From assembly GCA_965208605.1 (NCBI GenBank), contig OZ242345.1, positions 1,471,380 to 1,495,379 of the forward strand: a DNA stretch of 24,000 bases, written 5' to 3'. Source of the stretch: Candidatus Azotimanducaceae bacterium. GTDB lineage: Bacteria; Pseudomonadota; Gammaproteobacteria; Pseudomonadales; Azotimanducaceae. Of this stretch, positions 564 through 24,000 are shown piece after piece; within the stretch, counting starts at the first letter, position 1; every line of letters starts with the position of its first letter. The translations under genes and the position numbers were made by a program. The notes under the pieces are model-generated. The model made no database searches. It had not been told where the DNA came from and saw only the letters and a list, made by a program, of their open reading frames with translations.

Positions 564-573
564 TGTAGCATCC

Positions 574-876: not shown

Positions 877-878
877 GA

Positions 879-1859: not shown

Positions 1860-1887
1860 GCTTTGCCTCTCGTATCTTTCCAATATG

Positions 1888-1916: not shown

Positions 1917-1924
1917 TGGTATCA

Positions 1925-2368: not shown

Positions 2369-2370
2369 TT

Positions 2371-3162: not shown

Positions 3163-3188
3163 TGTGATGACCTTTTTTATTGTTTATT

Positions 3189-4145: not shown

Positions 4146-4183
4146 CTTCAAGACTCACAGGCTTGCGGTAAGTATCTGTCTAA

Positions 4184-5743: not shown

Positions 5744-5749
5744 ACCATG

Positions 5750-7054
5750 TTAGGAATTACGTTCATCAATGACCCGGACGGCCTTACCTTCAGAACGAGG
5801 TACGCCCCCCGGTTCACATATATCTACTTGGGTTGTTACACCCACGTAAGCTTTTATATCGCTTTGCAGTTTCTGCTTGATGTTATCGTTCTCTTTCACC
5901 GGAATTGAGGGCTGGCGTTCAACCATGACATTAAGCCTATCCAGATTACCTTCGCGAATCACGTGCAGTTGGTAGTGAGGCGATAGACCGTCTACCTTTA
6001 GAACACATTCCTCAATTTGTGAAGGGAAAACATTAACGCCGCGAATAATCAGCATATCATCACTGCGCCCGGTAATCTTTTCCATACGGCGCATCGTTCG
6101 AGCTGTACCAGGCAACAGTCTTGTTAGGTCACGAGTGCGATAACGAATTACAGGTAACGCTTCTTTGGTCAATGAAGTAAATACTAACTCCCCTAGTTCG
6201 CCGTCTGGTAAAGGCTCGCCATTTGTTGGATCAACAATCTCTGGGTAGAAATGATCTTCCCAAATCACTGGCCCGTCCTTTGTTTCAATACATTCGTTCG
6301 CTACTCCGGGGCCCATTACCTCTGACAAACCATAAATATCTACGGCATCCAAATTACAGCGTTGCTCTATCTTTTGGCGCATTGATTCGCCCCAAGGCTC
6401 AGCTCCAAAAATACCGACACTCAGCGATGACGATGCCGGGTTCAGTCCCTGACGTTCAAACTCATCGGCCAAATTGAGCATGTACGAAGGCGTACACATT
6501 ATGATATCTGGTCGAAAATCTTCTATGAGCTGAACTTGTTTTTGGGACTGGCCACCGGACATAGGGATAACCATGGCACCGAGCTTTTCAGCACCATAGT
6601 GTGCACCCAATCCGCCGGTAAACAGGCCGTAACCATAGGCCACGTGAATCTTGTCGCTTGACTGGCCTCCGCTTGCTCGGATGGAACGCGCACAAACCTT
6701 CGCCCAGGTTTCAATATCATTACGTGTATAAGCGACAACCGTCGGCTTGCCGGTTGTTCCACTTGAGGCATGAATCCTAACGACATCTGTCTCTGGTACT
6801 GCTAACAGACCAAAGGGGTAGTTTTGACGAAGATCATCTTTGAATGTAAAAGGGAAATGACGTAGATCATCAAGCGACTTTAGATCACCGGGGGCAATGC
6901 CTTTCTGCTCACATTTTTGTCGGTAAGGCGCAACATTGTCGTAGGTTGTGCCTATTGTTTGGCGGAGTCGTTCAAACTGAAGGGTTCGAATCTCATCAAT
7001 GCTGGCTATTTCAATTGGGTCTAGTGAGGATTTGTCTGGTATACGAGTTACCAT
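5750..7054 (-). CDS. paaK: Phenylacetate-CoA ligase
   Basis: 434 aa. It has the AMP-binding motif SSGTTGKPTVVAYT, YGLSE, and PaaK-type length and C-terminal domain (GRSDDMLIIRGVNVFP). Confidence 0.95.
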   Translation of the reverse strand: MVTRIPDKSSLDPIEIASIDEIRTLQFERLRQTIGTTYDNVAPYRQKCEQKGIAPGDLKSLDDLRHFPFTFKDDLRQNYPFGLLAVPETDVVRIHASSGTTGKPTVVAYTRNDIETWAKVCARSIRASGGQSSDKIHVAYGYGLFTGGLGAHYGAEKLGAMVIPMSGGQSQKQVQLIEDFRPDIIMCTPSYMLNLADEFERQGLNPASSSLSVGIFGAEPWGESMRQKIEQRCNLDAVDIYGLSEVMGPGVANECIETKDGPVIWEDHFYPEIVDPTNGEPLPDGELGELVFTSLTKEALPVIRYRTRDLTRLLPGTARTMRRMEKITGRSDDMLIIRGVNVFPSQIEECVLKVDGLSPHYQLHVIREGNLDRLNVMVERQPSIPVKENDNIKQKLQSDIKAYVGVTTQVDICEPGGVPRSEGKAVRVIDERNS

Positions 7055-7098
7055 TTTCTTATCCGTTCAATCTCTAAATTCATAAACAATCGGTAACT

Positions 7099-7113
7099 GA
7101 CGAGTATCATATT
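7099..7113 (-). promoter_or_regulatory. PaaX-operator-like box upstream of paaK
   Basis: The minus strand reads AATATGATACTCGTC, which matches 12 of 15 positions of the E. coli PaaX consensus as I remember it (WWTRTGATTCGYGWT). It lies 45-59 nt upstream of the paaK ATG. The match was counted by hand. Confidence 0.3.
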
Positions 7114-7140
7114 TTAGTCGTCCTGGCTGATAAGAGCATT

Positions 7141-9546
7141 TCAATATAGCATAAGCTGAGTTTCCGAAACCTCATGCGCCTCTACATCAGCAGGATAAAA
7201 CCAAATACGTTTTTTGCCAAAATCAGAATAAAGATTGATCTGGTCATCAAAATTACTTGCGCGCTCCCCGGCTGGGTTAACAAATGCGTTTTGCCCAGGC
7301 GGTGTTACCTCATAACCGATAATTTCTCCAGGCTTCATTATAATCATATTATTTTCGGTACCGCGATTTTGTTCAAGTGGTGTCATCGTTGGTTGTTGAT
7401 CAAAATCCTGGGGGATGCCTAGAAAATTTTTCTTCGCATAGGGTCTGGGGTCAACCGCCAATTTCCATTCATCCATGGTTGTTCCTTGTGTTTCGGATAG
7501 CAGCTCCAAGGTATTTTGCAGACTCAGCGAAATCAGCTCTATTGCATTAGTACCATTGAGTAAATCAAAATCACCACGGCCATTTAATGACTCAAACACA
7601 GCTTTAAATCCAGCTTGTATATTGGTGCCTGCAGCTGTTGGTTTGCCAGGTTCAGGGTAGCCTGTTGATGCAAAATAGGGATAAATATCGCCCAGATCAT
7701 CCTTTAATGCTTGCTCAATCAATTGCTTCACAAAGGTTCTGAATATGACGGGAGCTGGTCCATCGTAATAGCCATCACCATTCAGGTCCTCGTAATGGCC
7801 ATTCCATTTTTGTAAAATCTGATTGGCCTCGCTTAAATTTTGATCCGAATCGGCCGACTGGTCAATCAGCTCTATCAAATAAACCAGGTGCAGATCGATA
7901 TTGGAGCTGGTTTTAATCAAGCCCCAGGCTTGATCTGCGCTGAATCGGTCTTGTTGTTCAATGACATCATGCAGGTAATCGACCCGGTCAGCTTCGCTCC
8001 AGCTGTACCAAAATTCGTCTGGATTCATCACACCGTATCCAGGCTTGTTATTCCAGTTCGCTAAATAACCACCAACTGGATTCAACACCCGAGGGTTTGC
8101 CAACAAAGGGGGCAACCGCCCTTGCCAATCCATACTGCCGTCGCCGGTAACTGGCAGTCGATTATCATGCCCATCAACGCGTTTAGGATATTGCCCTCCA
8201 TAGAAGTAACCGATGTTGCCATCAACATCAGCGAAGTACATATTGACGTTAATCGCTGATTTTTCTGCCTGCTCTATCCAACTTGCATAGTCCATAGCCC
8301 AGGTTGCATACAACCAGGCAAGCAAGGTTTCCAGTTCTTTGCCGTCCCAAGCCCGTTGTTTGGCATAAGCCGTCAATTGATTGCCGGTATTATTTTCATC
8401 ACGATGAATAATTGGGCCGTGGACAGAGCGGTAGAGCGTCACTATCTCGGATTCTTCGCCAAGCACATCAATAATTTCGGTTCTTGATTCCAGATCAATG
8501 TAAGCACCCTTATACCAGTATTGATTAGAGTTCTCCGGGTTAAGTTGTTCAATGAATATATCAACGATATCGCCTGCCCCCCAGGTACTACCCCAGGCTA
8601 TAGAATCGTTATGACCGAACATGACCATTGGATAGCCAAATGGTGTATTGCCGGCCACATCAATGCCCGCGCCATGCATACCCACTGAATAGACATAGGA
8701 AGGCGAAAACCAACCAAATTGAGGGCCATTAGCAAGTATCGCATTGCCTTCTGACACCTTATCTTTGCCTAGGACCCAACAGTTACTCATGCCAGAAATG
8801 CCTTGCTCGGTGAATGCAATATAGTTTTCTAGAGAGTTTTTAAGACCTGAATCAAATAGCGTTTCATTCATCGTTAGTGCGTCTGGAACCAAGTGATTCC
8901 ATTCTGCCAAAGGCACGGTTGTTGGTGCGTTGTTGGTATATCTTGGGTTCAACAAATCAAACAAGGCAGTAGCTTTATGTTTGCCATGCTGTGTTTCTAA
9001 TGTCTGAAGTATTTTTAAATTGTCAAGTTCAGTATTGAAATCTCCATAACGGTTAGCCATGGTGCCGACAAATATCATAACAACATCATAAGCAGTCCAG
9101 TTTTTCGGTTTAAAACCATAATCCAGAAATTGCTTTGGCATCAAAGTTTCTGGTTTTTTCTCTATTTCTGTCAACCAGGCATTCATGCCATCAGCATAGC
9201 CTGCAAAAACATTTTGATCTTTAGTATCCAATGCCGAGATCTGTTTTCTGATAGATACTGGTGAAAAAATTTGTCTGGCATGCTTGTCAAACTCTATATA
9301 ATCCGGCCCCAGCACTTCAGCAACAAGCCCCTGAGTGCTACGCCGAGCCATATCCATCTGAAACAATCGATCCTGCGCAACAGCATATCCATAGCCGTAA
9401 TAGAGCCCGTAAATTGAATCAGCGTAAATATGGGGCACACCGTATTCATCACGCACGATTCTCACGCTAGGCTCAGGGGAACCCGTTTGATTTTCTGTAC
9501 AAGCAATCAGAGCCATGAGAGCGCAACACAACATTAGTGGTTTCAT
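7141..9546 (-). CDS. pac: Penicillin G acylase-like Ntn-hydrolase (phenylacetyl-amide acylase), predicted lipoprotein
   Basis: 801 aa, colinear with E. coli PGA: IVRDEYGVPHIYA, YGYGYAVAQDRLFQMDMARRSTQG, GTMANR. The beta-chain N-terminus SNCWVLGK...NGPQFGW...GNTPFGYP..FGHN parallels SNMWVIGK...NGPQFGW. The catalytic Ser codon is at 8785-8787. The N-terminus MKPLMLCCALMALIAC carries a lipobox (LIAC). Confidence 0.9.
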   Translation of the reverse strand: MKPLMLCCALMALIACTENQTGSPEPSVRIVRDEYGVPHIYADSIYGLYYGYGYAVAQDRLFQMDMARRSTQGLVAEVLGPDYIEFDKHARQIFSPVSIRKQISALDTKDQNVFAGYADGMNAWLTEIEKKPETLMPKQFLDYGFKPKNWTAYDVVMIFVGTMANRYGDFNTELDNLKILQTLETQHGKHKATALFDLLNPRYTNNAPTTVPLAEWNHLVPDALTMNETLFDSGLKNSLENYIAFTEQGISGMSNCWVLGKDKVSEGNAILANGPQFGWFSPSYVYSVGMHGAGIDVAGNTPFGYPMVMFGHNDSIAWGSTWGAGDIVDIFIEQLNPENSNQYWYKGAYIDLESRTEIIDVLGEESEIVTLYRSVHGPIIHRDENNTGNQLTAYAKQRAWDGKELETLLAWLYATWAMDYASWIEQAEKSAINVNMYFADVDGNIGYFYGGQYPKRVDGHDNRLPVTGDGSMDWQGRLPPLLANPRVLNPVGGYLANWNNKPGYGVMNPDEFWYSWSEADRVDYLHDVIEQQDRFSADQAWGLIKTSSNIDLHLVYLIELIDQSADSDQNLSEANQILQKWNGHYEDLNGDGYYDGPAPVIFRTFVKQLIEQALKDDLGDIYPYFASTGYPEPGKPTAAGTNIQAGFKAVFESLNGRGDFDLLNGTNAIELISLSLQNTLELLSETQGTTMDEWKLAVDPRPYAKKNFLGIPQDFDQQPTMTPLEQNRGTENNMIIMKPGEIIGYEVTPPGQNAFVNPAGERASNFDDQINLYSDFGKKRIWFYPADVEAHEVSETQLMLY

Positions 9547-12657: not shown

Positions 12658-15114
12658 ATGCACACTCTTCAAACATACCTCACACTTATCAATGGGTTAC
12701 GTACAGCAATAGTTGCCGTCGTGACATTAAGCATCCCGCTATCGGTTCAGGCAGTGATGCTTGAGGAAGTTGTCGTCACTGCGCAAAAGCGCGAACAGAG
12801 TGCGAACGATATTGGTATCACCATGAATGCGTTCTCAGGCGATTTACTCCGCGACCTAGGCGTGGCATCCGCGGAGGATATAGCGGTTATTACGCCGGGG
12901 TTAACCGTGAATGAGACCGCCGCGACAGGCGTGCCTCTGTATACAATTCGTGGTGTTGGCTTTCAGGACTATTCCACATCCGCATCATCGACTGTTGGCT
13001 TGTACTTCGATGAAGTGGCTATTCCATACACTGTCATGAGCCGTGGCGCCATCTTCGATGTGGAACGAGTCGAGGTACTAAAAGGTCCGCAGGGTGATCT
13101 TTATGGGCGTAACACAACAGCAGGTCAAATCAATTTCGTAAGCCGCAAGCCAACCGACGAATTTGAGGCGAGGGTTTCTTTAGGTATCGCCAATTTTGGA
13201 ACAGTGGAACTCGAGGGCTATGTCAGCGGCGCAATATCTTCGTCGGTTAATGGTCGCCTGTCTTTCAGAACGGAGCAATCCAGCGAGGGTTGGCAGAAAA
13301 GCACCACCCGCAATGACGAATTGGGTGAAAAAGACATTACGGCTATCCGCGCAATCCTTGACATTGACCTAAGCGAAAACGCCAGCCTGTTACTGAACGC
13401 TCATTATGTTGATGACGGCTCAGATAACAGAGCCAACACGGCCTACGATGGAAGAATTATTGGACAGGCTCTGTCTAACAACCCTTATCTACCACTGGAC
13501 CAGTATGTTATTCCAACAGGTGTAAATTTTGGTGGGACGCCGCCTTGGTTCTCCACAGGCGATAACCGTGCTGCGGATTGGACTAACAGTTATACAAGCT
13601 TGACGGGTCAAGTATTCGATCTTCGACCGCAGCGCGATAATCAACTATTTGGCTTGTCAGCGCGACTGGAGTGGCATTTCAATAATGTTACGTTGACCAG
13701 TATTTCTGGCTACGATACGTTTGACCGTGAGGAAGCTAACGATTGGGATGGTGGTTTCTTCAACGATTCGTCAAACATCAACACCACAGAAATCAACGTC
13801 TTCTCTCAAGAGCTACGTTTAAGTGGCGACAATGAGGAATTATCCTGGATTGCTGGGCTTTACTATTCAAAAGATGATGTGGACGAATATTACCATTACT
13901 TTATGTCGGACTCGGTCTTTGGCCTGGGTTCCATCCCATTTGGCGTCGCATTGTTTGCAACTACCCCCATTCGCGAACTAGACACCAAGTATCAGCAAGA
14001 CACAGATTCTTTCGCCGTGTTTGGTCATGTGGAATGGGAGTTTGCGGAGCGCTGGCACCTAACAGCCGGCTTACGTTATACCGATGAAGAGCGCAATTGG
14101 ACGGGCTGCACATTCGTGGCAGCGGACGGTAGTCTCGCCGGATTCCTTAACAAGTCATTTGGCGCTACGTTACAGCCAGGCGATTGCGGCACGATTAACG
14201 ATGATCCTACCTCACCCAATTTCGTCTTGTTTCTTGCCGGTACGCCGAATGTTAATGACGCCTTTCCAGTTTTCACCTCTAGGATTAGCACTAGTAAAAC
14301 CATGGGGAAAATAGGTGTGGATTATTCCTTTTCGGATGATGCTCTAGGCTACCTCACAGTTTCGACAGGCTTCAAATCCGGCGGTTTTAATGGTGCAAAC
14401 TCCAACACATCAGGGCAACTTCGTCCGTACCGGGAAGAGGAGCTAACGGCTATTGAACTAGGCTTAAAAGCAACCCTATTGGATGGTGCCATGCAGCTGA
14501 ATGCCGCGATATTCAACTATGACTATCAAGACAAGCAGGAGCAAGAGCGTGCTGTCACGTTTGTGGGGAATATTTCTGGCTTGACCAACGTTCCCGAATC
14601 CGAAATCAATGGTTCAGAGCTCGACGTGCAGTGGCAGGTGAACGATGGCTTGTACCTGAGTTGGGGCGTGGCTTTTCTGGGTACTGAAATCAAGGAGTGG
14701 GATGCGGTATCGAATGATAGCAACTACGATTTTGCTAATCTGCAGCCAAATATTATTACCTTTAGTGCTGCTGGCCTTGAACTGGCCCAGGCCCCAGAGG
14801 TTAGCTATCACTTTCTGGCTTCGTACAGCTGGAAACTTAGCAGCGATTGGACTATGGAAGTTGCTGGTGATATCAACTTTCAAGACGACACCACCGGTGG
14901 TGCACAACCCACCGATGCGACCAAAGACTTTACTTTGATCGGTGCTCGAATTGGCGTAACTAGTGCGGACGAAAAGTGGCGCATATTGTTGTGGAGCAAG
15001 AACCTGGCGGATGAGGACTACTATCCGGCAGCATATACGGGTGGTAACGGCCCCTATGTGCGCTCCAATGGCATGCCCCGAACCTACGGAGTCAGCCTGG
15101 ACTATAGCCTCTAG
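12658..15114 (+). CDS. TonB-dependent outer-membrane receptor (TBDR2)
   Basis: 818 aa. Signal peptide (...SIPLSVQA), TonB box LEEVVVTA, plug motif VEVLKGPQGDLYGRNTTAGQINFVS, and barrel motifs FKSGGFNG and YGVSLDYS. The RBS AAAGGG lies 8 nt upstream of the start. Confidence 0.9.
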   Translation: MHTLQTYLTLINGLRTAIVAVVTLSIPLSVQAVMLEEVVVTAQKREQSANDIGITMNAFSGDLLRDLGVASAEDIAVITPGLTVNETAATGVPLYTIRGVGFQDYSTSASSTVGLYFDEVAIPYTVMSRGAIFDVERVEVLKGPQGDLYGRNTTAGQINFVSRKPTDEFEARVSLGIANFGTVELEGYVSGAISSSVNGRLSFRTEQSSEGWQKSTTRNDELGEKDITAIRAILDIDLSENASLLLNAHYVDDGSDNRANTAYDGRIIGQALSNNPYLPLDQYVIPTGVNFGGTPPWFSTGDNRAADWTNSYTSLTGQVFDLRPQRDNQLFGLSARLEWHFNNVTLTSISGYDTFDREEANDWDGGFFNDSSNINTTEINVFSQELRLSGDNEELSWIAGLYYSKDDVDEYYHYFMSDSVFGLGSIPFGVALFATTPIRELDTKYQQDTDSFAVFGHVEWEFAERWHLTAGLRYTDEERNWTGCTFVAADGSLAGFLNKSFGATLQPGDCGTINDDPTSPNFVLFLAGTPNVNDAFPVFTSRISTSKTMGKIGVDYSFSDDALGYLTVSTGFKSGGFNGANSNTSGQLRPYREEELTAIELGLKATLLDGAMQLNAAIFNYDYQDKQEQERAVTFVGNISGLTNVPESEINGSELDVQWQVNDGLYLSWGVAFLGTEIKEWDAVSNDSNYDFANLQPNIITFSAAGLELAQAPEVSYHFLASYSWKLSSDWTMEVAGDINFQDDTTGGAQPTDATKDFTLIGARIGVTSADEKWRILLWSKNLADEDYYPAAYTGGNGPYVRSNGMPRTYGVSLDYSL

Positions 15115-15129
15115 ATGATGAATCCTCAT

Positions 15130-15152
15130 CCCCGGCAATGAGCCGGGGTTTT
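15130..15152 (+). terminator. Hairpin terminator or attenuator between TBDR2 and the amidohydrolase genes
   Basis: CCCCGGC-AATGA-GCCGGGG forms a perfect 7-bp GC-rich stem followed by TTTT. It sits 16 nt after the TBDR2 stop. Confidence 0.65.
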
Positions 15153-15194
15153 ACAGGGTTTCGGAAATAACCAACATCTAGTCGGAGTAGGAAA

Positions 15195-16922
15195 ATGATC
15201 AAACTTGCAGTGCCTTTACTGTTTGCCGGTTTTTGCCTTGGTCTCACAGCTTGCCAGCAGAATGAGCCAGACGACGAAGCAGCTGACACAATTCTCGTCA
15301 ATGCAAACATTCATACCATGGATGCCACGCACCCTACTGCCTCAGCACTGGCGATAAAAAACGGCAAGTACATCTACATTGGTGACAATCAGGGTGCTCG
15401 ATCGGTCGCCAATGCGTCGACTGAACTGATAGATCTGGGCGGCAAAATGCTAATGCCTGGAATCAACGATGCCCACCAACATCCGGTTGAGGGAGGCACG
15501 AAAGAACTATTTGAGTGTAGCTTTCCTTTCACTTCCGGGCCGGATGAAATTTCCAAGGCATTGCGCGCCTGCGTCGCAGCTCAGCCAGATGCTACCTGGA
15601 TACGTGGTGGGCAATTCTCCAGTGACTTTTTTGTCGACTACCCCATGGAATCTCCCAGGCTGTGGCTGGACAATGTATCCGGCAACAAAGCCGTTGCTCT
15701 TGTTGATGACGCCTATCATAACGCGTGGTTGAACACGCGAGCCATGGAGCTTTTGGGCGTAAATGGTGTCGAGGATTTACCCGAAGGCGTTGAGATGGCT
15801 CTCGATCAGGAGGGCAAGCCCGATGGCTTTATGATTGAAGCGTTTGGTTTCCTAAAAGATCAACTCACATGGAGTGAAGAACAATATCGGGCCGCAGTAG
15901 CGCACGCTGTTAAGCTGGCCAACGGGTTTGGCATTACAGGGCTAAAAGCAACCGCGATCGCCGAACCGGAGCTTGCTGCCTTTAAGTCTCTGGCCGAGAA
16001 CGAAGGCTTATCTGCACATGTTGCTGGTGCGATCGCCACACCGTATGGTCATCGTACCGAGGCATTGGATGTGAGCGAATACATTAAACTTCGCGATACC
16101 TATAAGGCACCGAACTTTAACACCAACTTCGTGAAAATATTTATGGATGGTGTGCCCACGGCGGCGCGAACAGCCGCGATGCTTACGCCCTATACCGCTG
16201 CTAAAGAGGGAGAAGAACGCACCCGAGGTCAACTTCACATTACTGCCGAGCTATTGAATCAGGATGTCGTTGCTCTCGATGCGGCTGGCTTTACCATCAA
16301 AATCCACACCGCAGGCGATCGATCAGTGCGAGTGGCACTAGATGCGATAGAGCAAGCGCGAGTCAAGAATGGTAAGAGCGGCGCACGCCATGAGCTAGCT
16401 CATGCCGGCTACGTTGATGAGGCAGATATAAATCGATTTGCCAGCTTGAACGCGATCCCGGATTTCTCCCCCTATATCTGGTTCCCATCACCTATTATGG
16501 ATTCGGTATTAACCGCCGTTGGCGAACGCGGAGAGTTTTACTGGCCTACAAAAACACTATTGAAGAGTGGCGCCAGCGTCGCGCCCGGTTCTGATTGGCC
16601 AGCTGCCGTACCGAGCATGAATCCTTGGCCAGGCATTGAAGCGTTAGTCACCAGAGCTGATCCTTTCAGCAATGGTACGGACACCTTGTGGGCCGACGAG
16701 GCGGTGTCGTTGGCAGATGCGCTCAAAGTTTTCACGGTTAACGGTGCGAAAGCACTCCGAATAGGCACACAGAGTGGCTCTATTGAAATCGGAAAATCGG
16801 CAGATTTCATCGTCTTAAACCATAATCTGTTTGACATAGAGCCAGCACTTATTAGTGATACTGAAGTGCTAATGACGTTCTTTGCCGGTAGTAAGGTGTA
16901 TGAAAAGTCTAATCAGAAATAA
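15195..16922 (+). CDS. Metal-dependent amidohydrolase (Amidohydro_3/YtcJ-like), predicted lipoprotein, paralog 1
   Basis: 575 aa. Lipobox LGLTAC, HxH metal motif PGINDAHQHP, and IHTAGDRSVR, HELAHAG and GSDWPA motifs. The RBS GGAG lies 7 nt upstream. Confidence 0.85.
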   Translation: MIKLAVPLLFAGFCLGLTACQQNEPDDEAADTILVNANIHTMDATHPTASALAIKNGKYIYIGDNQGARSVANASTELIDLGGKMLMPGINDAHQHPVEGGTKELFECSFPFTSGPDEISKALRACVAAQPDATWIRGGQFSSDFFVDYPMESPRLWLDNVSGNKAVALVDDAYHNAWLNTRAMELLGVNGVEDLPEGVEMALDQEGKPDGFMIEAFGFLKDQLTWSEEQYRAAVAHAVKLANGFGITGLKATAIAEPELAAFKSLAENEGLSAHVAGAIATPYGHRTEALDVSEYIKLRDTYKAPNFNTNFVKIFMDGVPTAARTAAMLTPYTAAKEGEERTRGQLHITAELLNQDVVALDAAGFTIKIHTAGDRSVRVALDAIEQARVKNGKSGARHELAHAGYVDEADINRFASLNAIPDFSPYIWFPSPIMDSVLTAVGERGEFYWPTKTLLKSGASVAPGSDWPAAVPSMNPWPGIEALVTRADPFSNGTDTLWADEAVSLADALKVFTVNGAKALRIGTQSGSIEIGKSADFIVLNHNLFDIEPALISDTEVLMTFFAGSKVYEKSNQK

Positions 16923-16930
16923 TTAATGCG

Positions 16931-18688
16931 ATGCCTACCTATAAACTTGCCAGGACTCCAGTTCTCGCAACTATCGCAAGTGTAGTAATGCTAACTGCCT
17001 GTCAGGACTTGCCAGCATCAAAATCAGCTGATTTGATGGTTGTTAATGCGAAAATATATACGCTTGCTGAACCCGAATGGGCCGAGTCGATGGCCATCAC
17101 CAATGGGCGAATTTCCTATATTGGTAGCGTCGAAGGTGCAGAAAAACTGGTCGGACCAGTAAGCCAGCGTCTGGATCTCGACGGCCGAATGGTGATGCCA
17201 GGTATAAACGACGCGCACCTACACCCCGTAGACGGCGCGCTGAAAGCACTCTATCGCTGCAATTTTCCATTTACAGCTGGCCCACTGGAGGTTCAATCAG
17301 CTGTTTTGGAATGTGTTAGAAATAGTGGCGACCAGCAGTGGATTATCGGTGGCCAATGGGACAGCGATTTCTTTGTCAACAACGATGTAGCTTCCCCGCG
17401 CGGTTTACTCGATGAGGTGTCAGACGACAAAGCCGTTTTTTTACGCGCTGATTCCGGCCACGATGCCTGGTTAAATAGCAAAGGACTGGAGCTTGCTGGA
17501 ATAAACAAACACAGCCATCAACCCGAGGGAGGTACGATTGTTCGTGATGAGAAGGGCGAGCCTAACGGGCTGCTTCTTGAAAAAGCGAAGTATGCGGCGG
17601 AAAAAAAGCTTCCCGCCAACACCGAAGAACAATACGTCAATGCCGCCCGAGAATTGATACAGATAGCGAACGCATACGGCGTAACGGGCATGAAGGACGC
17701 TTCGGCAGAAGAAGCTGATGTGAAATCACTAACGGCATTGGCAAGCTCTGGTGAACTCACTGCGCATATGGCGACCTCACTCAGGGTTCGAAAAGAGGAT
17801 TGGACTGCGGCTGGTTTTGATACCAGCCGATTACTGAGGGTGCGGGACCAGTACACAAATAATAACGTCGACACGCGACACGTAAAAATATTCATGGATG
17901 GAGTGCCGACCTCGTCGAGAACAGCGGCGATGCTGATGAATTACTTGCCTGTTTCAGAGCAAGAGCCTGCGCACAACGGGGACGTACATTTTAGCCTTGT
18001 GCAATTGTCTGAAATGCTGATTACGCTGGATGCGCTAGGCTTTACCGTAAAAATCCATACAGCGGGTGATCGCTCGGTACGCATGGCTCTGGACGCCATA
18101 GAAATTACCCGCGAAAAAAATGGCCGTAGCGGTTTACGCCACGAACTTGCGCATGCAGGTTATATCCATCCCGATGATATTAGTCGCTTCCGCCCTCTCA
18201 ATGCGGTCGCGGATCTGTCGCCTTATATTTGGTATCCCTCACCGATTATCGATTCTGTCCTTCGGGCAGTAGGGCCTCGCGGTGAAAGGTACTGGCCGAT
18301 GCGTGCTCTGATAGCAGCTAACGCCCCTATACTGGCGGGGTCAGATTGGCCCGCGGCTGTCTCTAGCATGAACCCTTGGGTCGGCATTGAAGCCATGGTG
18401 ACTCGAGCCAATCCCAATGACGAAACGGAAGGAGAATTATGGCCCGAGCAAGCGCTCTCCCTCGCGGAAGCGTTACGCGTGTTTACTCTGGGTGGCGCTA
18501 AAGCGCTTCGACTGGAACAGGAAACCGGCAGTCTGGAGACCGGAAAGCTTGCCGATTTTATCGTGTTAAATAAAAATCTTTTCGAGCAAGCCAGCAGCGA
18601 AATTGGTAGCACCGAAGTGGAAGCGACTTTCTTTGAAGGCAAGCTGGTTTATAGCCGCGATCAAGTCTTGTTCAACATCGTTCCGTAA
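16931..18688 (+). CDS. Metal-dependent amidohydrolase (Amidohydro_3/YtcJ-like), predicted lipoprotein, paralog 2
   Basis: 585 aa. Lipobox MLTAC, and PGINDAHLHP, IHTAGDRSVR, HELAHAG and GSDWPA motifs. It is colinear with paralog 1, with roughly half of the positions I aligned by eye identical and more than that in the C-terminal half. Confidence 0.85.
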   Translation: MPTYKLARTPVLATIASVVMLTACQDLPASKSADLMVVNAKIYTLAEPEWAESMAITNGRISYIGSVEGAEKLVGPVSQRLDLDGRMVMPGINDAHLHPVDGALKALYRCNFPFTAGPLEVQSAVLECVRNSGDQQWIIGGQWDSDFFVNNDVASPRGLLDEVSDDKAVFLRADSGHDAWLNSKGLELAGINKHSHQPEGGTIVRDEKGEPNGLLLEKAKYAAEKKLPANTEEQYVNAARELIQIANAYGVTGMKDASAEEADVKSLTALASSGELTAHMATSLRVRKEDWTAAGFDTSRLLRVRDQYTNNNVDTRHVKIFMDGVPTSSRTAAMLMNYLPVSEQEPAHNGDVHFSLVQLSEMLITLDALGFTVKIHTAGDRSVRMALDAIEITREKNGRSGLRHELAHAGYIHPDDISRFRPLNAVADLSPYIWYPSPIIDSVLRAVGPRGERYWPMRALIAANAPILAGSDWPAAVSSMNPWVGIEAMVTRANPNDETEGELWPEQALSLAEALRVFTLGGAKALRLEQETGSLETGKLADFIVLNKNLFEQASSEIGSTEVEATFFEGKLVYSRDQVLFNIVP

Positions 18689-19076: not shown

Positions 19077-19188
19077 GTTCTTGATTGGCGAGAAGTAATT
19101 GTTCTTGAATCTAAATGATTATAAGGTATAAGTTGGAGCATCATCGATCGTATAATATTGATATATGCGAGAAAATGAGCAAAATCAA

Positions 19189-19208
19189 GTCGGTCAAAAT
19201 CGTGACCG
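19189..19208. promoter_or_regulatory. Perfect palindrome TCGGTCA-N6-TGACCGA upstream of the aldehyde dehydrogenase gene (candidate operator)
   Basis: Read directly from the sequence. It has 7-bp arms and ends 37 nt before the ALDH ATG. No T-tract follows it, so it is not a terminator. Confidence 0.3.
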
Positions 19209-19244
19209 AGAAGCATATTTGTGTCAACTCAATGAGGATATAAC

Positions 19245-20666
19245 ATGTTAAACCTAGATATGTATGTAAATGGTCAGGCTGTTCAAGGCAGCGAATCGTT
19301 TGCGGTAATCAATCCAGCCACAGGTGCAGCATTTGCAAATGTTCAGGCCGGCGATATAGCACTAGTTGAACAGGCTGTAGGCTCGGCCAAGCAAGCGTTT
19401 GTTACCTGGAGTCAGACGTCCGATGCCGATCGACAGGCGGCGTGCCGCGATTTGGCCGGTGTGTTGAAAACGAATATGCCGGAGCTAATGGAGCTGGTCA
19501 CGCGCGAAACCGGGAAACCCATGGGCGGTCTTAATGGCGTTGGCTCCGGCATGGAGGTTGGTGGTGCTATGGCCTGGGCTCAGTTCACCGCTGAATTGTC
19601 CATCCCGGTTGAACTCATTCAAGACGACGACACAGCGCGGGTTGAAGTTCACCGAAAACCATTGGGCGTAGTGGCCTCCATCACACCCTGGAACTGGCCA
19701 CTGATGATCGCAATCTGGCACGTTATCCCGGCAATTCGAACTGGCAACACGGTAGTACTTAAGCCGTCACCTTACACCCCAGTCGCCACAACACGGTTCG
19801 TCGAACTCGCGCAACAGGTACTCCCGCCAGGCGTATTAAATCTTGTGCATGGCGAGGGTCCTGTCGGTGGCGCACTCACATCGCACCCGGACATCGCCAA
19901 AATTATATTCACCGGTTCTACCGCTACTGGGCGGAAAATTATGCAGTCAGCTTCCGCGAGCCTGAAACGCATTACCCTTGAACTCGGTGGCAATGATGCC
20001 GGAATAGTCCTGCCTGATGTCAAGGTAGCAGACGTTGCCCCAAAACTTTTCGGCGCCTGCTTTCATAATAACGGGCAAACCTGCGCAGCACTCAAGCGAT
20101 TGTATGTGCACGAATCTCAGTATGAAGAAATGTGCTCAGCACTTGCTGAGCTTGCCCAAACAGTCCGGGTGGGTGACGGTATGGAGGAAGATACCGAGCT
20201 CGGCCCGATACAGAATCTTGCGCAACTGAACATCGTCAAAGATCTCTCCCAGTCAGCGCGTACTGATGGCGGGCGGTTTCTAGCAGGTGGAGAGCAAATA
20301 GATCGCGATGGTTATTTCTTCCAGCCTACAATCGTCGCCGATTTGACTGACGGGTCGAGACTGGTTGATGAAGAACCGTTCGGGCCCATTTTGCCCGTAA
20401 TCAAATATACGGACATTGAAGAAGTCATTCAACGCGCTAATCAAAATGAACGAGGGCTCGGAGGATCGGTCTGGTCAAGCGATACAGCCAAGGCTATCGC
20501 CTTCGCCCAACGCTTGGAGTGCGGGTCGGCATGGGTCAACCAGCATGGCGCTCTTCAACCCAACGCACCTTTTGGAGGTGTAAAACAGTCGGGAATTGGC
20601 GTAGAGTTTGGCACCTATGGCCTAGAGGAATATACATCCATCCAGACCTTAAACATTGCCAAGTGA
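19245..20666 (+). CDS. NAD(P)+-dependent aldehyde dehydrogenase (candidate arylacetaldehyde/phenylacetaldehyde dehydrogenase)
   Basis: 473 aa. ALDH motifs are present: ITPWNWP, FTGSTATG, LELGGNDA, the catalytic Cys in NNGQTCAA, and EEPFGPILPV. GAGGA lies 7 nt upstream. There is no signal peptide. The substrate assignment rests on gene context only. Confidence 0.88.
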   Translation: MLNLDMYVNGQAVQGSESFAVINPATGAAFANVQAGDIALVEQAVGSAKQAFVTWSQTSDADRQAACRDLAGVLKTNMPELMELVTRETGKPMGGLNGVGSGMEVGGAMAWAQFTAELSIPVELIQDDDTARVEVHRKPLGVVASITPWNWPLMIAIWHVIPAIRTGNTVVLKPSPYTPVATTRFVELAQQVLPPGVLNLVHGEGPVGGALTSHPDIAKIIFTGSTATGRKIMQSASASLKRITLELGGNDAGIVLPDVKVADVAPKLFGACFHNNGQTCAALKRLYVHESQYEEMCSALAELAQTVRVGDGMEEDTELGPIQNLAQLNIVKDLSQSARTDGGRFLAGGEQIDRDGYFFQPTIVADLTDGSRLVDEEPFGPILPVIKYTDIEEVIQRANQNERGLGGSVWSSDTAKAIAFAQRLECGSAWVNQHGALQPNAPFGGVKQSGIGVEFGTYGLEEYTSIQTLNIAK

Positions 20667-20698
20667 GGCAAGGAGAGTCAGCGAATTGCCGGGGGATA

Positions 20699-21895
20699 AT
20701 GAGAATGCGCACTAAATTATTCAGTGCAATAACAGGGTTTATTGCTGCGCTAGCGACCGGAGGAATGGCCCTTGCGGAACAGGGACCTGCATCTATTCCG
20801 CCGCCACTTGCGATAGAAAAAACGGGTAATGTACTGAGTTTACCCGCCAGTTATCCCGAAAGCTGGGTCATGGTTGATGAAGCAAGTTTTTTTAGCATGT
20901 ACGGTGGCAAAGTTATCGTTCTAGATGTGATGGAAACCGCCCCTGCCAAGCGCATAAAAGGCATGGTTCATAAAAACTTGCTCGGCAATTTTGCCCAGCA
21001 CCAGAAACGGCCGGAATTCTATGTGCTTGAAACTTTTCACGAGCGCGGCTGGCGGGGTAAAAAAACGGACGTGTTTGTTGTTTATGATCGAAGCACTCTG
21101 AAAATCAAAAAAGAATTTGTCTGGCCAACAGACCGAATGCAAGCTCTCCCGCGACGCTATGACATGACGGTGTCAGGCGACCAAGACTACCTTTACGCCG
21201 CCAATTTCACACCAGCAGCGTCATTTTCAGTGGTTCGACTTGATGGGCATGAGTTGCTGGGAACTATTGATACGCCCGGCTGTGTACTGACTTTCCCCGC
21301 TGGTAAGCGCAGCGTGGCTTCATTGTGTAATAACGGCGGCATGTTAACGACGGTGGTGAATAAGGACGGCAGTCTGAAATCTCAACATCGCATGGAGCCA
21401 TTCTTTGATACAGATAAAACACCGATCTTCGAAAGGCCAGCCATTGTAAAAGGTCGCGCCTATTTCCCCAGTTTCACGGGCATGATGCATGAGATTGATT
21501 TGAGTGGTGAAGTAGCTAAGTACAAAGGAAATTGGAACCTACTAAGTGAGGAAGAGCAAGCCGCAAACTGGCGGCCTGCTGGTCTTGGCCTAGTCGATCG
21601 AGATGACCAGGGACTGCTGTACCTGATCATGCAGCCTGATGGTGCCGAAGGGACGCACTCACACGGTGGCTCTCATATTTGGGTCATTGACGTGCGTAAG
21701 AAACAGCGAGTGCGCATTATCGAAGCACCTAATTGGGCTATATCATTAGCGGTGACCCGAGGCAAGTCACCGAAAATTGTCGTCACCAACGGCGAACTGT
21801 CTTTGGATGTAATTGACGCAGAAAGCGGAGAGCTACTACAAACTATCAGCGATATAGGCAGCGTCACTCCCTTGATCGTTTACAAGTCGTATTGA
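20699..21895 (+). CDS. aauB: Quinoprotein (TTQ) amine dehydrogenase large subunit, MauB/AauB family
   Basis: About 398 aa with a signal peptide (ATGGMALA|EQ). Its size and beta-propeller-like sequence fit MADH/AADH heavy chains, and it is followed by mauE and the light-chain gene. The ORF-track start at 20519 lies inside the ALDH gene. The real start is the ATG at 20699 or at 20705. Confidence 0.8.
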   Translation: MRMRTKLFSAITGFIAALATGGMALAEQGPASIPPPLAIEKTGNVLSLPASYPESWVMVDEASFFSMYGGKVIVLDVMETAPAKRIKGMVHKNLLGNFAQHQKRPEFYVLETFHERGWRGKKTDVFVVYDRSTLKIKKEFVWPTDRMQALPRRYDMTVSGDQDYLYAANFTPAASFSVVRLDGHELLGTIDTPGCVLTFPAGKRSVASLCNNGGMLTTVVNKDGSLKSQHRMEPFFDTDKTPIFERPAIVKGRAYFPSFTGMMHEIDLSGEVAKYKGNWNLLSEEEQAANWRPAGLGLVDRDDQGLLYLIMQPDGAEGTHSHGGSHIWVIDVRKKQRVRIIEAPNWAISLAVTRGKSPKIVVTNGELSLDVIDAESGELLQTISDIGSVTPLIVYKSY

Positions 21896-21905
21896 GCGCA
21901 TTTTA

Positions 21906-22472
21906 ATGGATTGGTTAGCGTTGATTAGTGACTGTCTTGCCTTGTTTTTGTTATGGCTATTTGTCACTGCAGGCATTCACAAATTGCAATACCGAAATAG
22001 GAATTACTATCAGCGAGTAATTTCCGCGTATGGGTTTGATAGCCTGGCAGCATCTTTGAACTTTAGACGGCTATTGGGTCTGTTCGAACTTCTGTTGGGC
22101 ATGACAATCATGGTGCCACTCTGGCGGGAGGTGGCTGCCATCACTGCCACGCTACTGTTGCTCGGCTATTTTGTGTTAATGGCGACTCAGCTCTGGCAGG
22201 GTAAAAGAGATGTTGATTGTGGTTGTGCGGGCCCCATGAGTGATTCAAAAATTGCACCTGCGCTATTGGTTCGAAATGCCTTTCTGATTGTCGTTGCATT
22301 GTTTTGTGTGATGAATGATTCCAGTGCCCTATTCAGTGCTGCTCTCAATGATCGCAGCGCAGCACTGTTTGCGCTTCCTCTCGCGATAATGATGCCCATT
22401 CTATATATGTGTTGTGAACAGCTCATTGTGAATGGTCAGAAACTTCAAAACCTGAAAACAATAAGGTCGTAG
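21906..22472 (+). CDS. mauE: MauE-family membrane protein (amine dehydrogenase maturation)
   Basis: 188 aa with 4-5 hydrophobic helices. It has a DCGCAG motif equivalent to the MauE CGCFG motif and occupies the canonical position after the large-subunit gene. Confidence 0.8.
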   Translation: MDWLALISDCLALFLLWLFVTAGIHKLQYRNRNYYQRVISAYGFDSLAASLNFRRLLGLFELLLGMTIMVPLWREVAAITATLLLLGYFVLMATQLWQGKRDVDCGCAGPMSDSKIAPALLVRNAFLIVVALFCVMNDSSALFSAALNDRSAALFALPLAIMMPILYMCCEQLIVNGQKLQNLKTIRS

Positions 22473-22473
22473 A

Positions 22474-22620
22474 ATGGCTCTCCTCGTCATCTCAAATACC
22501 TTTCTCATGATAGTCATTAAACAGCATGGGCTACAGTACTACCCGTATCTCATATCAGAAGTACTTGGCAGAAATTACAGCATCTCGAAAGATTGTTTGA
22601 AGCAAAAGAACGGAAGGTAG
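22474..22620 (+). pseudogene. 48-codon ORF at the position where mauD/aauD is expected (possible decayed mauD remnant)
   Basis: My translation is MALLVISNTFLMIVIKQHGLQYYPYLISEVLGRNYSISKDCLKQKNGR*. The ATG lies 1 nt after the mauE stop, with AAGG upstream. The hydrophobic N-terminus resembles a MauD membrane anchor, but no thioredoxin-like CxxC domain fits in the 232-bp gap. Confidence 0.3.
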
Positions 22621-22704
22621 CATCTATTCAGACTATATGGCCGGGCAAAGTGCGGCTGATGAAGCCAGCTTTGTAGAAGTGCCGAAATAGGGAGACTGGA
22701 AAAA

Positions 22705-23217
22705 ATGAACATTCTCGACAAACTCTTAGAAAAATCGGCACGCCGAGTTGCTCAACAAAGCTCGCGACGTAGCCTGTTAAAAACAGTAGGCACTGCACTG
22801 GTGGGTGCCGCCAGCATTCCCTTGTTGCCCGTCGCACGTGCTTCGGAGCAACCGGCTAAACCGGCGGAAACTGGCGACCCCGCTAGTTGTGATTATTGGC
22901 GCTATTGTGCCATCGACGGCTTTCTTTGCGAGTGCTGTGGCGGCAATTACAATAGTTGCCCTCCTGGTACCGAAATGTCTACCTTGACCTGGATAGGCAC
23001 CTGCAGAAACCCAGATGATGGGCGCAATTACGTTATCTCATACAACGATTGTTGTGGTGTTACCCAATGTGGAACATGTTTGTGCCAACGTGATGAAAGA
23101 GATCGTCCCATTTACCGAGCTGACAAGTCCAACGACATAAACTGGTGCTTGGGCTCCAGCAGTTCCGTCTATCACTGTTCGACCGCAATCATTGTTGGTG
23201 TGGCGTTCGAAGAATAA
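22705..23217 (+). CDS. aauA: TTQ amine dehydrogenase small (cofactor-bearing) subunit, aromatic-amine-dehydrogenase-like
   Basis: 170 aa. Twin-arginine leader SRRSLLK, then CDYWRYCAIDGFLCECCGG, CPPGT, TWIGTC, DCCG, NDINWC and YHC motifs. The two putative TTQ Trp codons are at 22990-22992 and 23143-23145, 51 residues apart as in MADH (Trp57/Trp108). There are 14 Cys residues. Confidence 0.9.
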   Translation: MNILDKLLEKSARRVAQQSSRRSLLKTVGTALVGAASIPLLPVARASEQPAKPAETGDPASCDYWRYCAIDGFLCECCGGNYNSCPPGTEMSTLTWIGTCRNPDDGRNYVISYNDCCGVTQCGTCLCQRDERDRPIYRADKSNDINWCLGSSSSVYHCSTAIIVGVAFEE

Positions 23218-23243
23218 TTGCATCGTATAACTGAACAATAAGT

Positions 23244-23738
23244 ATGAAAGTGTTCGGAGCCACTATTCAAATGCAATCCAATTCGGCGTTGCCCGTGGTG
23301 CCTTTGCTGTTGTGGCTATTTGCTACGTCTGCATTTGCGGAGTCGCCACAGCTAGAGCAACAGTCTCTGCCACAGGATGAGCTTGAGCGGCGTGCGCAGT
23401 TTAACTACCAACTGTATTGCCAAGGTTGCCATGGACCGGATGGTAGTGGGAAACGAGGCGTTCCCAGCCTCAAAGATTCGATTGGTACTTTTTTAAAATC
23501 ACAACATGGCAGAGAATATCTGATTCGTGTTCCTGGCACCGCAAACGCACCGCTTGATGACTTGCAACTCACCGAATTAATGAACTGGACGATAATACGC
23601 TACGCTGGAGCTAGCCTGCCTGAACTATGGCAATCTTATGTAACGGAAGAAGTCAGTCTCTATCGCCAACAACCATTGTTAGAGGTGCAACGCTATCGAC
23701 AACAACTTTTGGCCCAATTGCTGGAATCAGACGACTGA
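23244..23738 (+). CDS. Monohaem c-type cytochrome, periplasmic (candidate electron acceptor)
   Basis: 164 aa with a signal peptide (...TSAFA|ES) and a single CQGCH haem-binding motif. The start could instead be the ATG at 23271. Confidence 0.75.
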   Translation: MKVFGATIQMQSNSALPVVPLLLWLFATSAFAESPQLEQQSLPQDELERRAQFNYQLYCQGCHGPDGSGKRGVPSLKDSIGTFLKSQHGREYLIRVPGTANAPLDDLQLTELMNWTIIRYAGASLPELWQSYVTEEVSLYRQQPLLEVQRYRQQLLAQLLESDD

Positions 23739-23765
23739 TCAGCTGGAAAATCACCGAGGTCTACA

Positions 23766-24000
23766 ATGAAACTTGTTCACTTTCAAAAATTAATAATCAA
23801 ACTATTTCTCGCCTCAGTGTGCAGCTTGAGCCACGTTGCTAGCGCAGATGACGCAACTGTTCTCGCCCAGACGTGTTCTGCCTGTCATGGTCAAGCAGGC
23901 GTTTCCTTAAACCCCAATTGGCCACATTTAGCCGGACAAAAACAAGGCTATTTGATACAGGAAATAACGGCGCTCAGAGATGGCACAAGAGAAGAGCCGA
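23766..24000 (+). CDS. Class I c-type cytochrome (c4/c553-like), 3' end cut by the window edge
   Basis: Not in the ORF track because no stop codon lies inside the window. My translation is MKLVHFQKLIIKLFLASVCSLSHVASADDATVLAQTCSACHGQAGVSLNPNWPHLAGQKQGYLIQEITALRDG... It has a CSACH haem motif and the PHLAGQ..YL pattern of c4-type domains. GAGG lies 6 nt upstream. Confidence 0.75.
   Translation, partial: MKLVHFQKLIIKLFLASVCSLSHVASADDATVLAQTCSACHGQAGVSLNPNWPHLAGQKQGYLIQEITALRDGTREEP

Follow-up and report, generated by a model that had tools for sequence, protein, structure and literature searches.

The aromatic amine dehydrogenase (AADH; AauA/AauB) of Alcaligenes faecalis is a TTQ enzyme of the alpha2beta2 family, and its aauBEDA-orf2 cluster was reportedly described by Chistoserdov in 2001 and Hothi in 2005. 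The mau clusters of Paracoccus denitrificans and Methylobacterium encode the large and small subunits of methylamine dehydrogenase (MADH) and MauE, and also carry mauF, mauD, amicyanin, mauJ, mauG and mauM/N homologues. Two other systems feed amines into phenylacetate catabolism. In E. coli, the tynA-feaB-feaR genes lie beside paaA-K and paaX, and the O2-dependent copper/TPQ oxidase TynA begins a route from amine through aldehyde to phenylacetate. The pea cluster of P. putida U, which Arias et al. are said to have described in 2008, comprises the quinohaemoprotein PeaABCD, the aldehyde dehydrogenase PeaE and an AraC-type regulator.

A predicted amine dehydrogenase operon near paa genes

We analysed a 24,000-nucleotide stretch of DNA from a marine Candidatus Azotimanducaceae bacterium (the window). 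Its last part (19245–24000) codes, on the plus strand, for a cytoplasmic NAD(P)+ aldehyde dehydrogenase (ALDH; 19245–20666; PF00171, E = 2.5e-143), the periplasmic large (alpha) subunit of a TTQ amine dehydrogenase (20699–21895; PF06433, E = 1.6e-29), a MauE-type membrane protein (21906–22472; PF07291, E = 7.6e-21), the precursor of the small (beta) subunit, including a Tat-type leader (22705–23217; PF02975, E = 4.5e-52), a c552-like monohaem class I cytochrome c (23244–23738; one CQGCH motif and a signal peptide) and the N-terminal part of a dihaem c4/PdsA-like cytochrome (23766–24000; two CxxCH motifs; PF00034 and PF13442). Open reading frames and family matches bear out this gene order, which a preliminary description of the same DNA had proposed. 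The large subunit most likely starts at the ATG at 20699, which opens a signal peptide (MRMRTKLF...ALA); a GTG at 20519 is a less likely start and would overlap the ALDH gene.

Together with two genes past the window end, encoding a ferric-reductase-like membrane protein and a membrane-anchored tetrahaem cytochrome, these genes would form an eight-gene operon, which also holds a mauD remnant. The ALDH-to-cytochrome operon probably has its promoter in the gap 5′ of the ALDH gene (19077–19244, plus strand); the mauD remnant excepted, this is the sole gap of more than 50 bp from the upstream SnoaL-like gene through the operon. A weak sigma-70-like match within the gap (19158–19185) does not rise above shuffle expectation, and PaaX-type half-sites match there only with two mismatches in total. 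The window itself encodes no FeaR- or MauR-type regulator, as had been stated, but 3.3 kb past its end there is a gene for a QhpR-like AraC regulator of the amine-dehydrogenase type. This protein scores 207 bits against the QhpR model and 47.6 bits against FeaR, which sets it apart from the FeaR-like regulator of E. coli and recalls the AraC-type regulator of the pea cluster. Of the 20 loci in a neighbouring subclade (mostly Halieaceae), 10 have AraC homologues after the operon.

Relationship to aromatic amine dehydrogenase

By sequence comparison, the window enzyme is a TTQ amine dehydrogenase of AADH type and belongs to a clade of its own, mostly marine. Aligned with AADH, the small subunit, which has a twin-arginine leader (SRRSLL), retains both TTQ tryptophans (W96 and W147), the catalytic Asp pair (D71 and D115) and 14 of 14 cysteines, against 12 in the small subunit of MADH; S159 replaces Thr172-beta of AADH. 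An Asn precedes the second TTQ tryptophan in both the window protein and AADH, whereas MADH has Ile at this position, which reportedly has a role in specificity according to MADH mutagenesis work. The small-subunit motifs quoted in the preliminary description are all present, and the AADH and MADH versions given there match the PDB alignments (for MADH, that of P. versutus). The mature small subunit is about 55–60% identical to that of AADH and scores 156 bits against AADH versus about 130 bits against MADH in the PDB; the large subunit scores just 170 bits against AADH alpha versus 91 bits against the MADH heavy chain.

In a tree of concatenated large and small subunits, the window proteins fell within a 48-row clade (support 95/87) that is sister to the Alcaligenes-type AADH clade (support 99/92). 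In the latter, a Denitromonas protein with a score of 203 bits against PDB 2agl_D serves as the anchor. MADH occupies a long separate branch (length 2.5), far from the window proteins, which lie outside the MADH clade. The suggested resemblance to AADH rather than MADH is upheld by the PDB scores and the sister relationship, with the correction that the enzyme lies outside the AADH clade proper. The order large subunit, MauE, MauD, small subunit, cytochrome, without amicyanin, MauG, MauF or MauJ, is common to AADH-clade loci. The window shares this aauBEDA-orf2-type order, with MauD in degraded form, whereas the mau clusters introduced above depart from it; of the additional genes that those clusters carry, the window has only the mauD remnant. 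MauE, an accessory factor for small-subunit biogenesis, is homologous to that of the mau clusters and found at the same operon position in relatives.

Relatives were counted over 80 loci, 31 from the immediate clade and 49 others. A homologue of the monohaem cytochrome lies 3′ of the small-subunit gene in 74 of the 80; its family profile matches Thermus cytochrome c552 (E = 2e-20), and we propose that it is the direct electron acceptor of the dehydrogenase. The complete second cytochrome has 191 residues and both CxxCH motifs, its gene ending at about 24341, past the window, and scores 69.9 bits against PdsA. This dihaem c4-like protein is present in 29 of 31 immediate-clade loci versus 0 of 49 others. 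Unlike the AADH system, the window operon adds a conserved c4-like cytochrome and an ALDH, its mauD is degraded, and the whole genome encodes no azurin or other cupredoxin.

Decay of mauD

A mauD pseudogene (22474–22704, plus strand) occupies the 232 bp that separate mauE from the gene for the small subunit. A tblastn search with MauD of the sister locus L005 gave matches confined to codons 1–12, 126–150 (60% identity) and 173–190 (89% identity), the last in another frame, indicating a frameshift; the CPVC redox motif is deleted. Intact mauD was found in all 31 immediate-clade loci, MauD in 71 of the 80 relatives overall, and the gene is kept in all eight same-genus loci examined. mauD is reportedly essential in every mau or aau system tested, as shown by mutants of M. 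extorquens, P. denitrificans and A. faecalis. Across the whole genome we found no other MauD, the sole MauD-like match being a cytoplasmic peroxiredoxin, and no MauG/CCP homologue. With mauD reduced to a pseudogene and no MauG in the genome, the activity of the enzyme in this strain is uncertain.

These observations, together with a small genome (2.8 Mb) that also lacks PaaZ, make it a serious possibility, though not the one we favour, that the module was inactivated recently and survives as a relic that carries no flux in this strain, with the clade-level function still standing. Both the window enzyme and a second TTQ dehydrogenase would then be inactive, because their disulfide-rich small subunit could not be made without MauD. 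Against this, all operon genes other than mauD are intact, and their proteins show neither rate acceleration nor excess divergence relative to L005. There is no mauD at the second TTQ locus (contig 1, about 5.2–8.1 kb) either, although that locus is intact and compact, mauE and the cytochrome gene lying 12 bp apart. It fits an organism that manages without MauD, in which the enzyme might still mature.

Association with phenylacetate genes

The minus strand of the window encodes the phenylacetate-CoA ligase PaaK (5750–7054; TIGR02155, 698 bits, cut-off 646) and, at 3–4151, paaC (partial), paaB, paaA, a paaI-like thioesterase, paaG and paaX, assigned with Pfam; paaG also exceeds the TIGR02280 cut-off (378 versus 345 bits), and paaD and paaE continue the cluster upstream of the window. 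Among relatives, 9 of 31 immediate-clade loci have paaK, paaA or paaX within 10 kb, versus 3 of 49 elsewhere. In loci L026, L061, L016, L017 and L047, paaK is the immediate neighbour of the operon, as is paaX in L007. This linkage recurs independently, in several families and in differing arrangements.

The enzyme might instead be a broad or different primary-amine dehydrogenase, acting on periplasmic amines (for example, aliphatic amines or diamines) supplied by TonB-receptor and amidohydrolase sets. A TonB-dependent receptor and Amidohydro_3 pair adjoins both TTQ loci of the genome, homologues of the pair recur beside the operon in relatives, and only about 30% of immediate-clade loci have paa genes within 10 kb, the other 70% having none. 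The ALDH, which falls below every NCBIfam equivalog cut-off, has its best curated match in an aminobutyraldehyde-dehydrogenase subfamily (PRK13473, 416 bits), followed by StyD (401 bits); it would then yield non-aromatic acids, with phenylacetate at most one product among several. We consider this unlikely, given the repeated, independent placement of paaK directly beside the operon and the AADH-like Asn; no other catabolic pathway recurred comparably beside the operon among the genes probed.

A search of the whole genome found no TynA homologue, in agreement with the preliminary description, which had also doubted that the ALDH is a FeaB orthologue. The ALDH is not that orthologue: with 36% identity, it ranks third among the matches to E. 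coli FeaB in the genome. It has no predicted signal peptide, and 15 of 31 immediate-clade loci have an orthologue of it (54–78% identity) directly 5′ of the gene for the large subunit. No PaaZ or PaaN equivalog was found in the genome, so the downstream paa pathway may be incomplete. With the paa genes nearby, the ALDH could in principle supply the semialdehyde-dehydrogenase step normally taken by PaaZ rather than oxidize phenylacetaldehyde; this is improbable, as it is only 25% identical to the PaaZ ALDH domain, no better than other ALDH paralogues, and its orthologues stay beside the gene for the TTQ large subunit in loci that have no paa genes nearby, too. That the enzyme is a methylamine dehydrogenase serving C1 or nitrogen metabolism, as the label 'methylamine dehydrogenase light chain' given to close homologues by public annotation pipelines would have it, is very improbable in view of its place in the tree, the missing amicyanin, MauG, MauF and MauJ, scores below both MADH equivalog cut-offs (160.6 versus 196.85 for the small subunit with TIGR02659, and 102.7 versus 454.45) and an adjacent ALDH and paa genes that fit formaldehyde metabolism poorly.

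Proposed pathway

On balance, we favour a route in which a periplasmic AADH-type TTQ dehydrogenase, its cytochromes and the ALDH lead from an arylethylamine to phenylacetate and the paa pathway. The alpha2beta2 enzyme would oxidize a primary arylethylamine in the periplasm to the arylacetaldehyde and ammonium, the substrate, as gene context suggests, most likely being 2-phenylethylamine or a close analogue. Electrons would pass through the c552-like and then the c4-like cytochrome to a terminal oxidase. The aldehyde would enter the cell, where the co-transcribed ALDH would convert it to phenylacetate for activation by PaaK, encoded 12 kb from the operon.

Such a route would follow the logic of the E. 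coli system, with the place of TynA taken by a periplasmic TTQ dehydrogenase that is unrelated to it and passes electrons to cytochromes. Like the pea system, it would join a periplasmic quinoprotein and a dedicated aldehyde dehydrogenase to the phenylacetyl-CoA catabolon, although the pea enzyme is a three-subunit CTQ/haem protein (QHNDH) with a radical-SAM maturase and the window enzyme a two-subunit TTQ protein. The proposal that a quinoprotein takes the place of TynA in an amine-to-phenylacetate pathway is left in doubt for this strain by the decay of mauD and the lack of MauG; for the clade as a whole, the linkage to paa genes supports it.

Genetic organization of the operon

The genes that the preliminary description had assigned to positions 19245–24000 are all present there, in the order given and on the plus strand. 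The first encodes an aldehyde dehydrogenase (ALDH; 19245–20666; PF00171, E 2.5e-143), followed by a TTQ-dehydrogenase large subunit (PF06433, E 1.6e-29, 103.4 bits against a cut-off of 21), MauE (21906–22472; PF07291), the small subunit (22705–23217; PF02975, E 4.5e-52, 175.7 bits against a cut-off of 25) and a monohaem cytochrome c of 164 residues with a single CxxCH motif. A second, c4/PdsA-like cytochrome (191 residues, two CxxCH motifs) begins in the window and ends just past it. ATG 20699 is the most likely start codon of the large subunit, since translation from it yields a normal signal peptide, whereas the GTG first listed (20519) would make the gene overlap that of the ALDH. Beyond the window the operon continues with a plus-strand pair (L001:5771–6780, in the source genome), a ferric-reductase-like membrane protein (six helices, 215 residues) whose gene overlaps by 4 bp that of a membrane-anchored tetrahaem c3-like cytochrome (121 residues). 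This pair is kept after the c4 cytochrome only in the related loci L004, L005 and L016.

Upstream of the ALDH gene, the plus strand carries a second receptor gene, two Amidohydro_3 genes and a gene for a SnoaL/lumazine-binding-like protein. The minus strand of the window is listed with paaC′, paaB, paaA, a paaI-like thioesterase gene, paaG, paaX, an MFS transporter gene, paaK, and genes for a penicillin-amidase-family protein and a TonB-dependent receptor; paaD, paaE and a TPP-enzyme gene lie upstream, beyond the window edge. Past the operon and also beyond the window are an acyl-CoA synthetase gene in the opposite orientation and a plus-strand gene for an AraC-family protein (L001:8706–9722, equal to window coordinates 27326–28342). 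The best NCBIfam match of this protein is QhpR, which regulates quinohaemoprotein amine dehydrogenase (207 bits against a cut-off of 250), and it is a candidate amine-responsive regulator of the operon. AraC homologues also occur directly 3′ of the operon in a neighbouring, mostly Halieaceae, subclade. Promoter and terminator scans gave signals no higher than those in shuffled sequences.

The enzyme is of the AADH type and lies outside the AADH clade proper

Both subunits exceed the curated cut-offs of their families (Me-amine-dh_L and Me-amine-dh_H), which places them in the TTQ-dependent amine dehydrogenase family. Small-subunit residues W96, W147, D71 and D115 align at a constant offset with Trp109, Trp160, Asp84 and Asp128 of the β subunit of the Alcaligenes faecalis aromatic amine dehydrogenase (AADH, encoded by aauAB), the tryptophans being the pair that forms TTQ in this family and the aspartates the catalytic ones. 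W96, W147 and D115 are invariant in our small-subunit alignment, D71 being the exception.

Two characterized types of TTQ enzyme had to be considered, AADH and methylamine dehydrogenase (MADH, MauAB). The small-subunit motifs on which the preliminary description had based its preference for AADH are present, and the AADH and MADH versions it set beside them agree with PDB alignments. The AADH small subunit has 14 cysteines, each with an aligned counterpart in the window protein, whereas MADH has 12. Against solved structures, the mature small subunit scored 156 bits with AADH and about 130 bits with MADH, and the large subunit 170 and 91 bits, respectively. Both subunits fell below the MADH equivalog cut-offs (TIGR02659, 160.6 against 196.85; TIGR02658, 102.7 against 454.45).

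We built separate trees of the large and small subunits and a concatenated tree with bootstraps, all of which agree. AADH was anchored by a Denitromonas small subunit (203 bits to PDB 2agl_D) and its locus, and MADH by the Paracoccus denitrificans and Methylobacterium mau clusters; the other rows were plasmid-borne 'aau'-type clusters and 80 loci from species genomes. A representative library at 50% identity, in which the matches were mainly fragments and frameshifted small subunits, served only to find an AADH-like query. The window pair groups with two loci from metagenome-assembled genomes (MAGs), L005 and L004 (support 100/99), within a seven-row subclade (100/100) whose other members come from Cellvibrionaceae and one Colwellia MAG. 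In the concatenated tree this subclade is nested in a 48-row clade (95/87) that is sister to the AADH clade (99/92), and MADH forms a very long separate branch; the small-subunit tree likewise puts the window clade in a separate sister group. Clustering with MADH, which would have spoken against the original proposal, was thus not seen in the trees. AADH-like rather than MADH-like is the part of that proposal that stands, by scores and by tree, although membership of the AADH clade proper does not. As judged from these comparisons, the window enzyme is an AADH-type TTQ amine dehydrogenase outside that clade.

Operon architecture divides as the tree does. MADH clusters carry mauF, mauD, amicyanin, mauJ, mauG and mauM/N, whereas loci of the AADH clade and of the window clade alike consist of genes for the large subunit, MauE, MauD, the small subunit and one or two cytochromes c, and have no mauF, amicyanin, mauJ, mauG or mauM/N. 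Searches by tblastn with the P. denitrificans proteins found no amicyanin, MauG, MauF or MauJ in the genome or in the 80 related loci. The B-E-D-A order with intact MauD that marks the A. faecalis AauAB clade is found in relatives of the window operon but not in the window itself, where mauD is degraded to about 230 bp. Relatives in culture that have the operon intact include Pseudomaricurvus alcaniphilus, Pseudoteredinibacter isoporae, Kineobactrum sediminis and Parahaliea mediterranea.

Several marine gammaproteobacterial genomes carry two tandem TTQ gene pairs from two different subclades (loci L041, L046, L056, L066, L069, L071 and L081), in the order large–small, then large–(MauE–MauD)–small–cytochrome.

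A proposed phenylacetate-linked amine oxidation module

The operon is embedded in a phenylacetate catabolic island, as had been proposed. PaaK, PaaABCDE, PaaG and PaaX are encoded; PaaK and PaaG exceed NCBIfam equivalog cut-offs, PaaA, PaaB, PaaC, PaaX and PaaI were identified by Pfam, and PaaD and PaaE were found upstream of the window. Using the proteins of the window as queries against the 80 related loci, we compared the enzyme's immediate clade (31 sampled loci; support 98 in the large-subunit tree) with the other 49. MauD is encoded in 31/31 and 40/49 of these, respectively, the c552-like monohaem cytochrome in 30/31 and 44/49, and the c4-like cytochrome in 29/31 and 0/49. An orthologous ALDH gene (54–78% identity) lies directly upstream of the large-subunit gene in 15 of the 31; the four cases among the 49 are not the same orthologue. 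Nine loci of the immediate clade and three of the others have paaA, paaK or paaX within 10 kb, raw counts that are inflated by kinship among loci. By our own estimate, a random 20-kb stretch overlaps a paa cluster by chance roughly 1% of the time.

The arrangements vary. In L026 the operon is directly flanked by paaK on the upstream and paaI on the downstream side, L061 and L017 have paaK immediately after the cytochrome gene, L016 has paaK–paaX upstream, L007 has paaX after the c4 cytochrome gene, and in Luminiphilus paaA lies upstream of the ALDH gene. This variety across lineages argues for repeated selection of the paa linkage. This recurrence is the strongest evidence so far that the module would yield phenylacetate, and hence that its substrate may be 2-phenylethylamine or a close analogue; from the association with paaK, paaA and paaX, the enzyme has a putative preference for arylethylamines (such as phenylethylamine, tyramine and tryptamine).

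Such a pathway is already known from E. coli (TynA/FeaB), P. putida (QHNDH/PeaE) and A. faecalis (AADH), and the window operon, amid its phenylacetate genes, would fill the role of the E. coli pair. In keeping with the suggested replacement of TynA, tblastn with E. coli TynA found no copper amine oxidase in the genome; we used tblastn because a Pfam copper amine oxidase search, also empty, was silent for the E. coli control too. The caution that the ALDH was not obviously a FeaB orthologue was justified, as it is only the third-best FeaB match in the genome (36% identity, 302 bits) and not a reciprocal best hit. The best match is another ALDH (42% identity, 415 bits) at position 540047 of contig 1, in an unrelated gene context. 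A TOTE conflict-system primase-helicase gene (AEP-TOTE plus ResIII/DEAD; L103:3519–5939, minus strand, contig 1 at about 537.5–539.9 kb) adjoins it. The operon ALDH also scored below the StyD-type cut-off (NF045735, 401 against 850 bits). Its best PDB match is 8YEN, and the phenylacetaldehyde dehydrogenases 4qyj and 4o5h are among its top matches, not set apart from betaine-aldehyde dehydrogenases. ALDHs tied to AADH-clade loci are not orthologous to it (33–39% identity), which indicates that the operon aldehyde dehydrogenase was recruited independently.

Further down the pathway, no PaaZ or PaaN equivalog was found in the whole genome (TIGR02278, at best 114 against 563 bits; TIGR02288, at best 47 against 579), and an E. 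coli PaaZ query matched nothing but generic ALDH paralogues (about 25% identity). Ring opening has no obvious enzyme, so the route from phenylacetyl-CoA may be incomplete beyond the epoxide and oxepin steps. For regulation, we searched for the E. coli PaaX operator consensus TGATTC-N15–35-GAATCA. With up to one mismatch it has no match in the window, and shuffled sequences give about one per 24 kb; the matches in the 19077–19244 gap all have two mismatches, and the paa promoters have none. The operator scan thus provides no evidence for PaaX control.

At the end of the paa operon are genes for a DUF819 membrane protein and an acetolactate-synthase-like TPP-dependent enzyme (PRK08266; L002:12688–14331, minus strand), the latter next to paaE on its upstream side and beyond the window edge. 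It may act as a 2-oxoacid decarboxylase and so likewise yield an aldehyde.

Electron transfer

Azurin would be the expected physiological acceptor for a member of the A. faecalis AADH clade. No PF00127 cupredoxin is encoded anywhere in the genome, which excludes azurin and amicyanin alike as acceptor. The monohaem cytochromes found 3′ of the small-subunit gene form a family whose profile matches Thermus cytochrome c552 (E 2e-20), a soluble carrier to terminal oxidases. Given this match and the c4/PdsA-like dihaem protein, we read the two cytochromes as an acceptor chain for the dehydrogenase, which they would form together, and not as maturation enzymes.

Cofactor maturation

Between mauE and the small-subunit gene lie 232 bp that represent the remnant of a mauD gene. 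Of the closest relative's MauD, this remnant retains codons 1–12, 126–150 (60% identity) and 173–190 (89% identity, in another frame), and the thioredoxin CPVC motif is gone. No other MauD was found in the genome (95.8% complete, two contigs), the sole weak match being a cytoplasmic peroxiredoxin. An exact 28-mer across the deletion junction had no match in a metagenome search. For every operon gene, the proteins of the window and of its sister L005 have equal pairwise identities to those of the outgroups L004 and L017, and so the genes of the window show no sign of relaxed constraint. Either the deletion happened recently or it is tolerated.

The MauG/CCP family (PF03150) was found in the genome neither by HMM nor by tblastn, and no linked mauG was found within 10 kb in any of more than 85 loci examined. 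Two other genomes with the clade's operon lack the family as well, one being that of the isolate Pseudomaricurvus alcaniphilus, and PF03150 proteins are entirely missing from 3 of the 11 genomes tested. A CCP match apparently inside L010 was rejected as a coincidence of contig numbering.

A second, divergent TTQ locus (L087; contig 1, about 5231–8078, minus strand) encodes a large subunit, small subunit, MauE and monohaem cytochrome. A mauD gene is missing there, but present in its relatives L045, L047, L054 and L067. Genes for a DUF5020-like and an SCP2 protein follow, and the locus is divergent from genes for a TonB-dependent receptor and an Amidohydro_3 protein. Both TTQ loci of the genome thus adjoin such receptor and Amidohydro_3 genes (window 12658–18688; L087:8663–12667), and homologues of the receptor, amidohydrolase and amidase also lie 3′ of the operon in Halieaceae (L013, L018, L021, L022, L025, L032 and L040). 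These neighbours suggest imported amides as the compounds from which the amines are released.

The one unusual point of the finding is that MauG, and in this genome MauD too, is missing. With two otherwise intact TTQ loci, it is conceivable from gene content, if rather doubtful, that TTQ is made in this genome without MauG and MauD. If either enzyme is active, TTQ cross-linking and oxygenation and the formation of small-subunit disulfides would have to come about in the AADH-type superclade by a route new to science, for which autocatalysis, general periplasmic Dsb proteins or a conserved operon cytochrome may be considered.

Implications

To our knowledge, TTQ dehydrogenases are known almost wholly from methylotroph MADH and the single Alcaligenes AADH. 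Among the species genomes scanned, at least 598 have a gene for a relative of the small subunit. Most of the 80 closest loci examined belong to marine Gammaproteobacteria, notably Cellvibrionaceae, Halieaceae and Woeseiaceae, with some from Alphaproteobacteria, and nearly all are annotated 'methylamine dehydrogenase'. In the immediate clade of the window enzyme, the dedicated cytochromes, frequent ALDH and repeated linkage to phenylacetate-CoA ligase argue for oxidation of biogenic arylethylamines and not of methylamine. Nothing specific emerged from literature searches on AADH, paa and TTQ biogenesis without MauG; this clade of enzymes is uncharacterised, as are the cytochromes that go with it and its broad occurrence in marine bacteria. 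As an annotation, the original finding is both correct and useful, describing an AADH-type TTQ operon with its own ALDH and cytochromes in the phenylacetate island of a marine gammaproteobacterium. The arylethylamine reading would alter the interpretation of these genes in marine metagenomes, and the absence of MauG, and here of MauD too, offers a clean handle on how TTQ forms in AADH-type enzymes.
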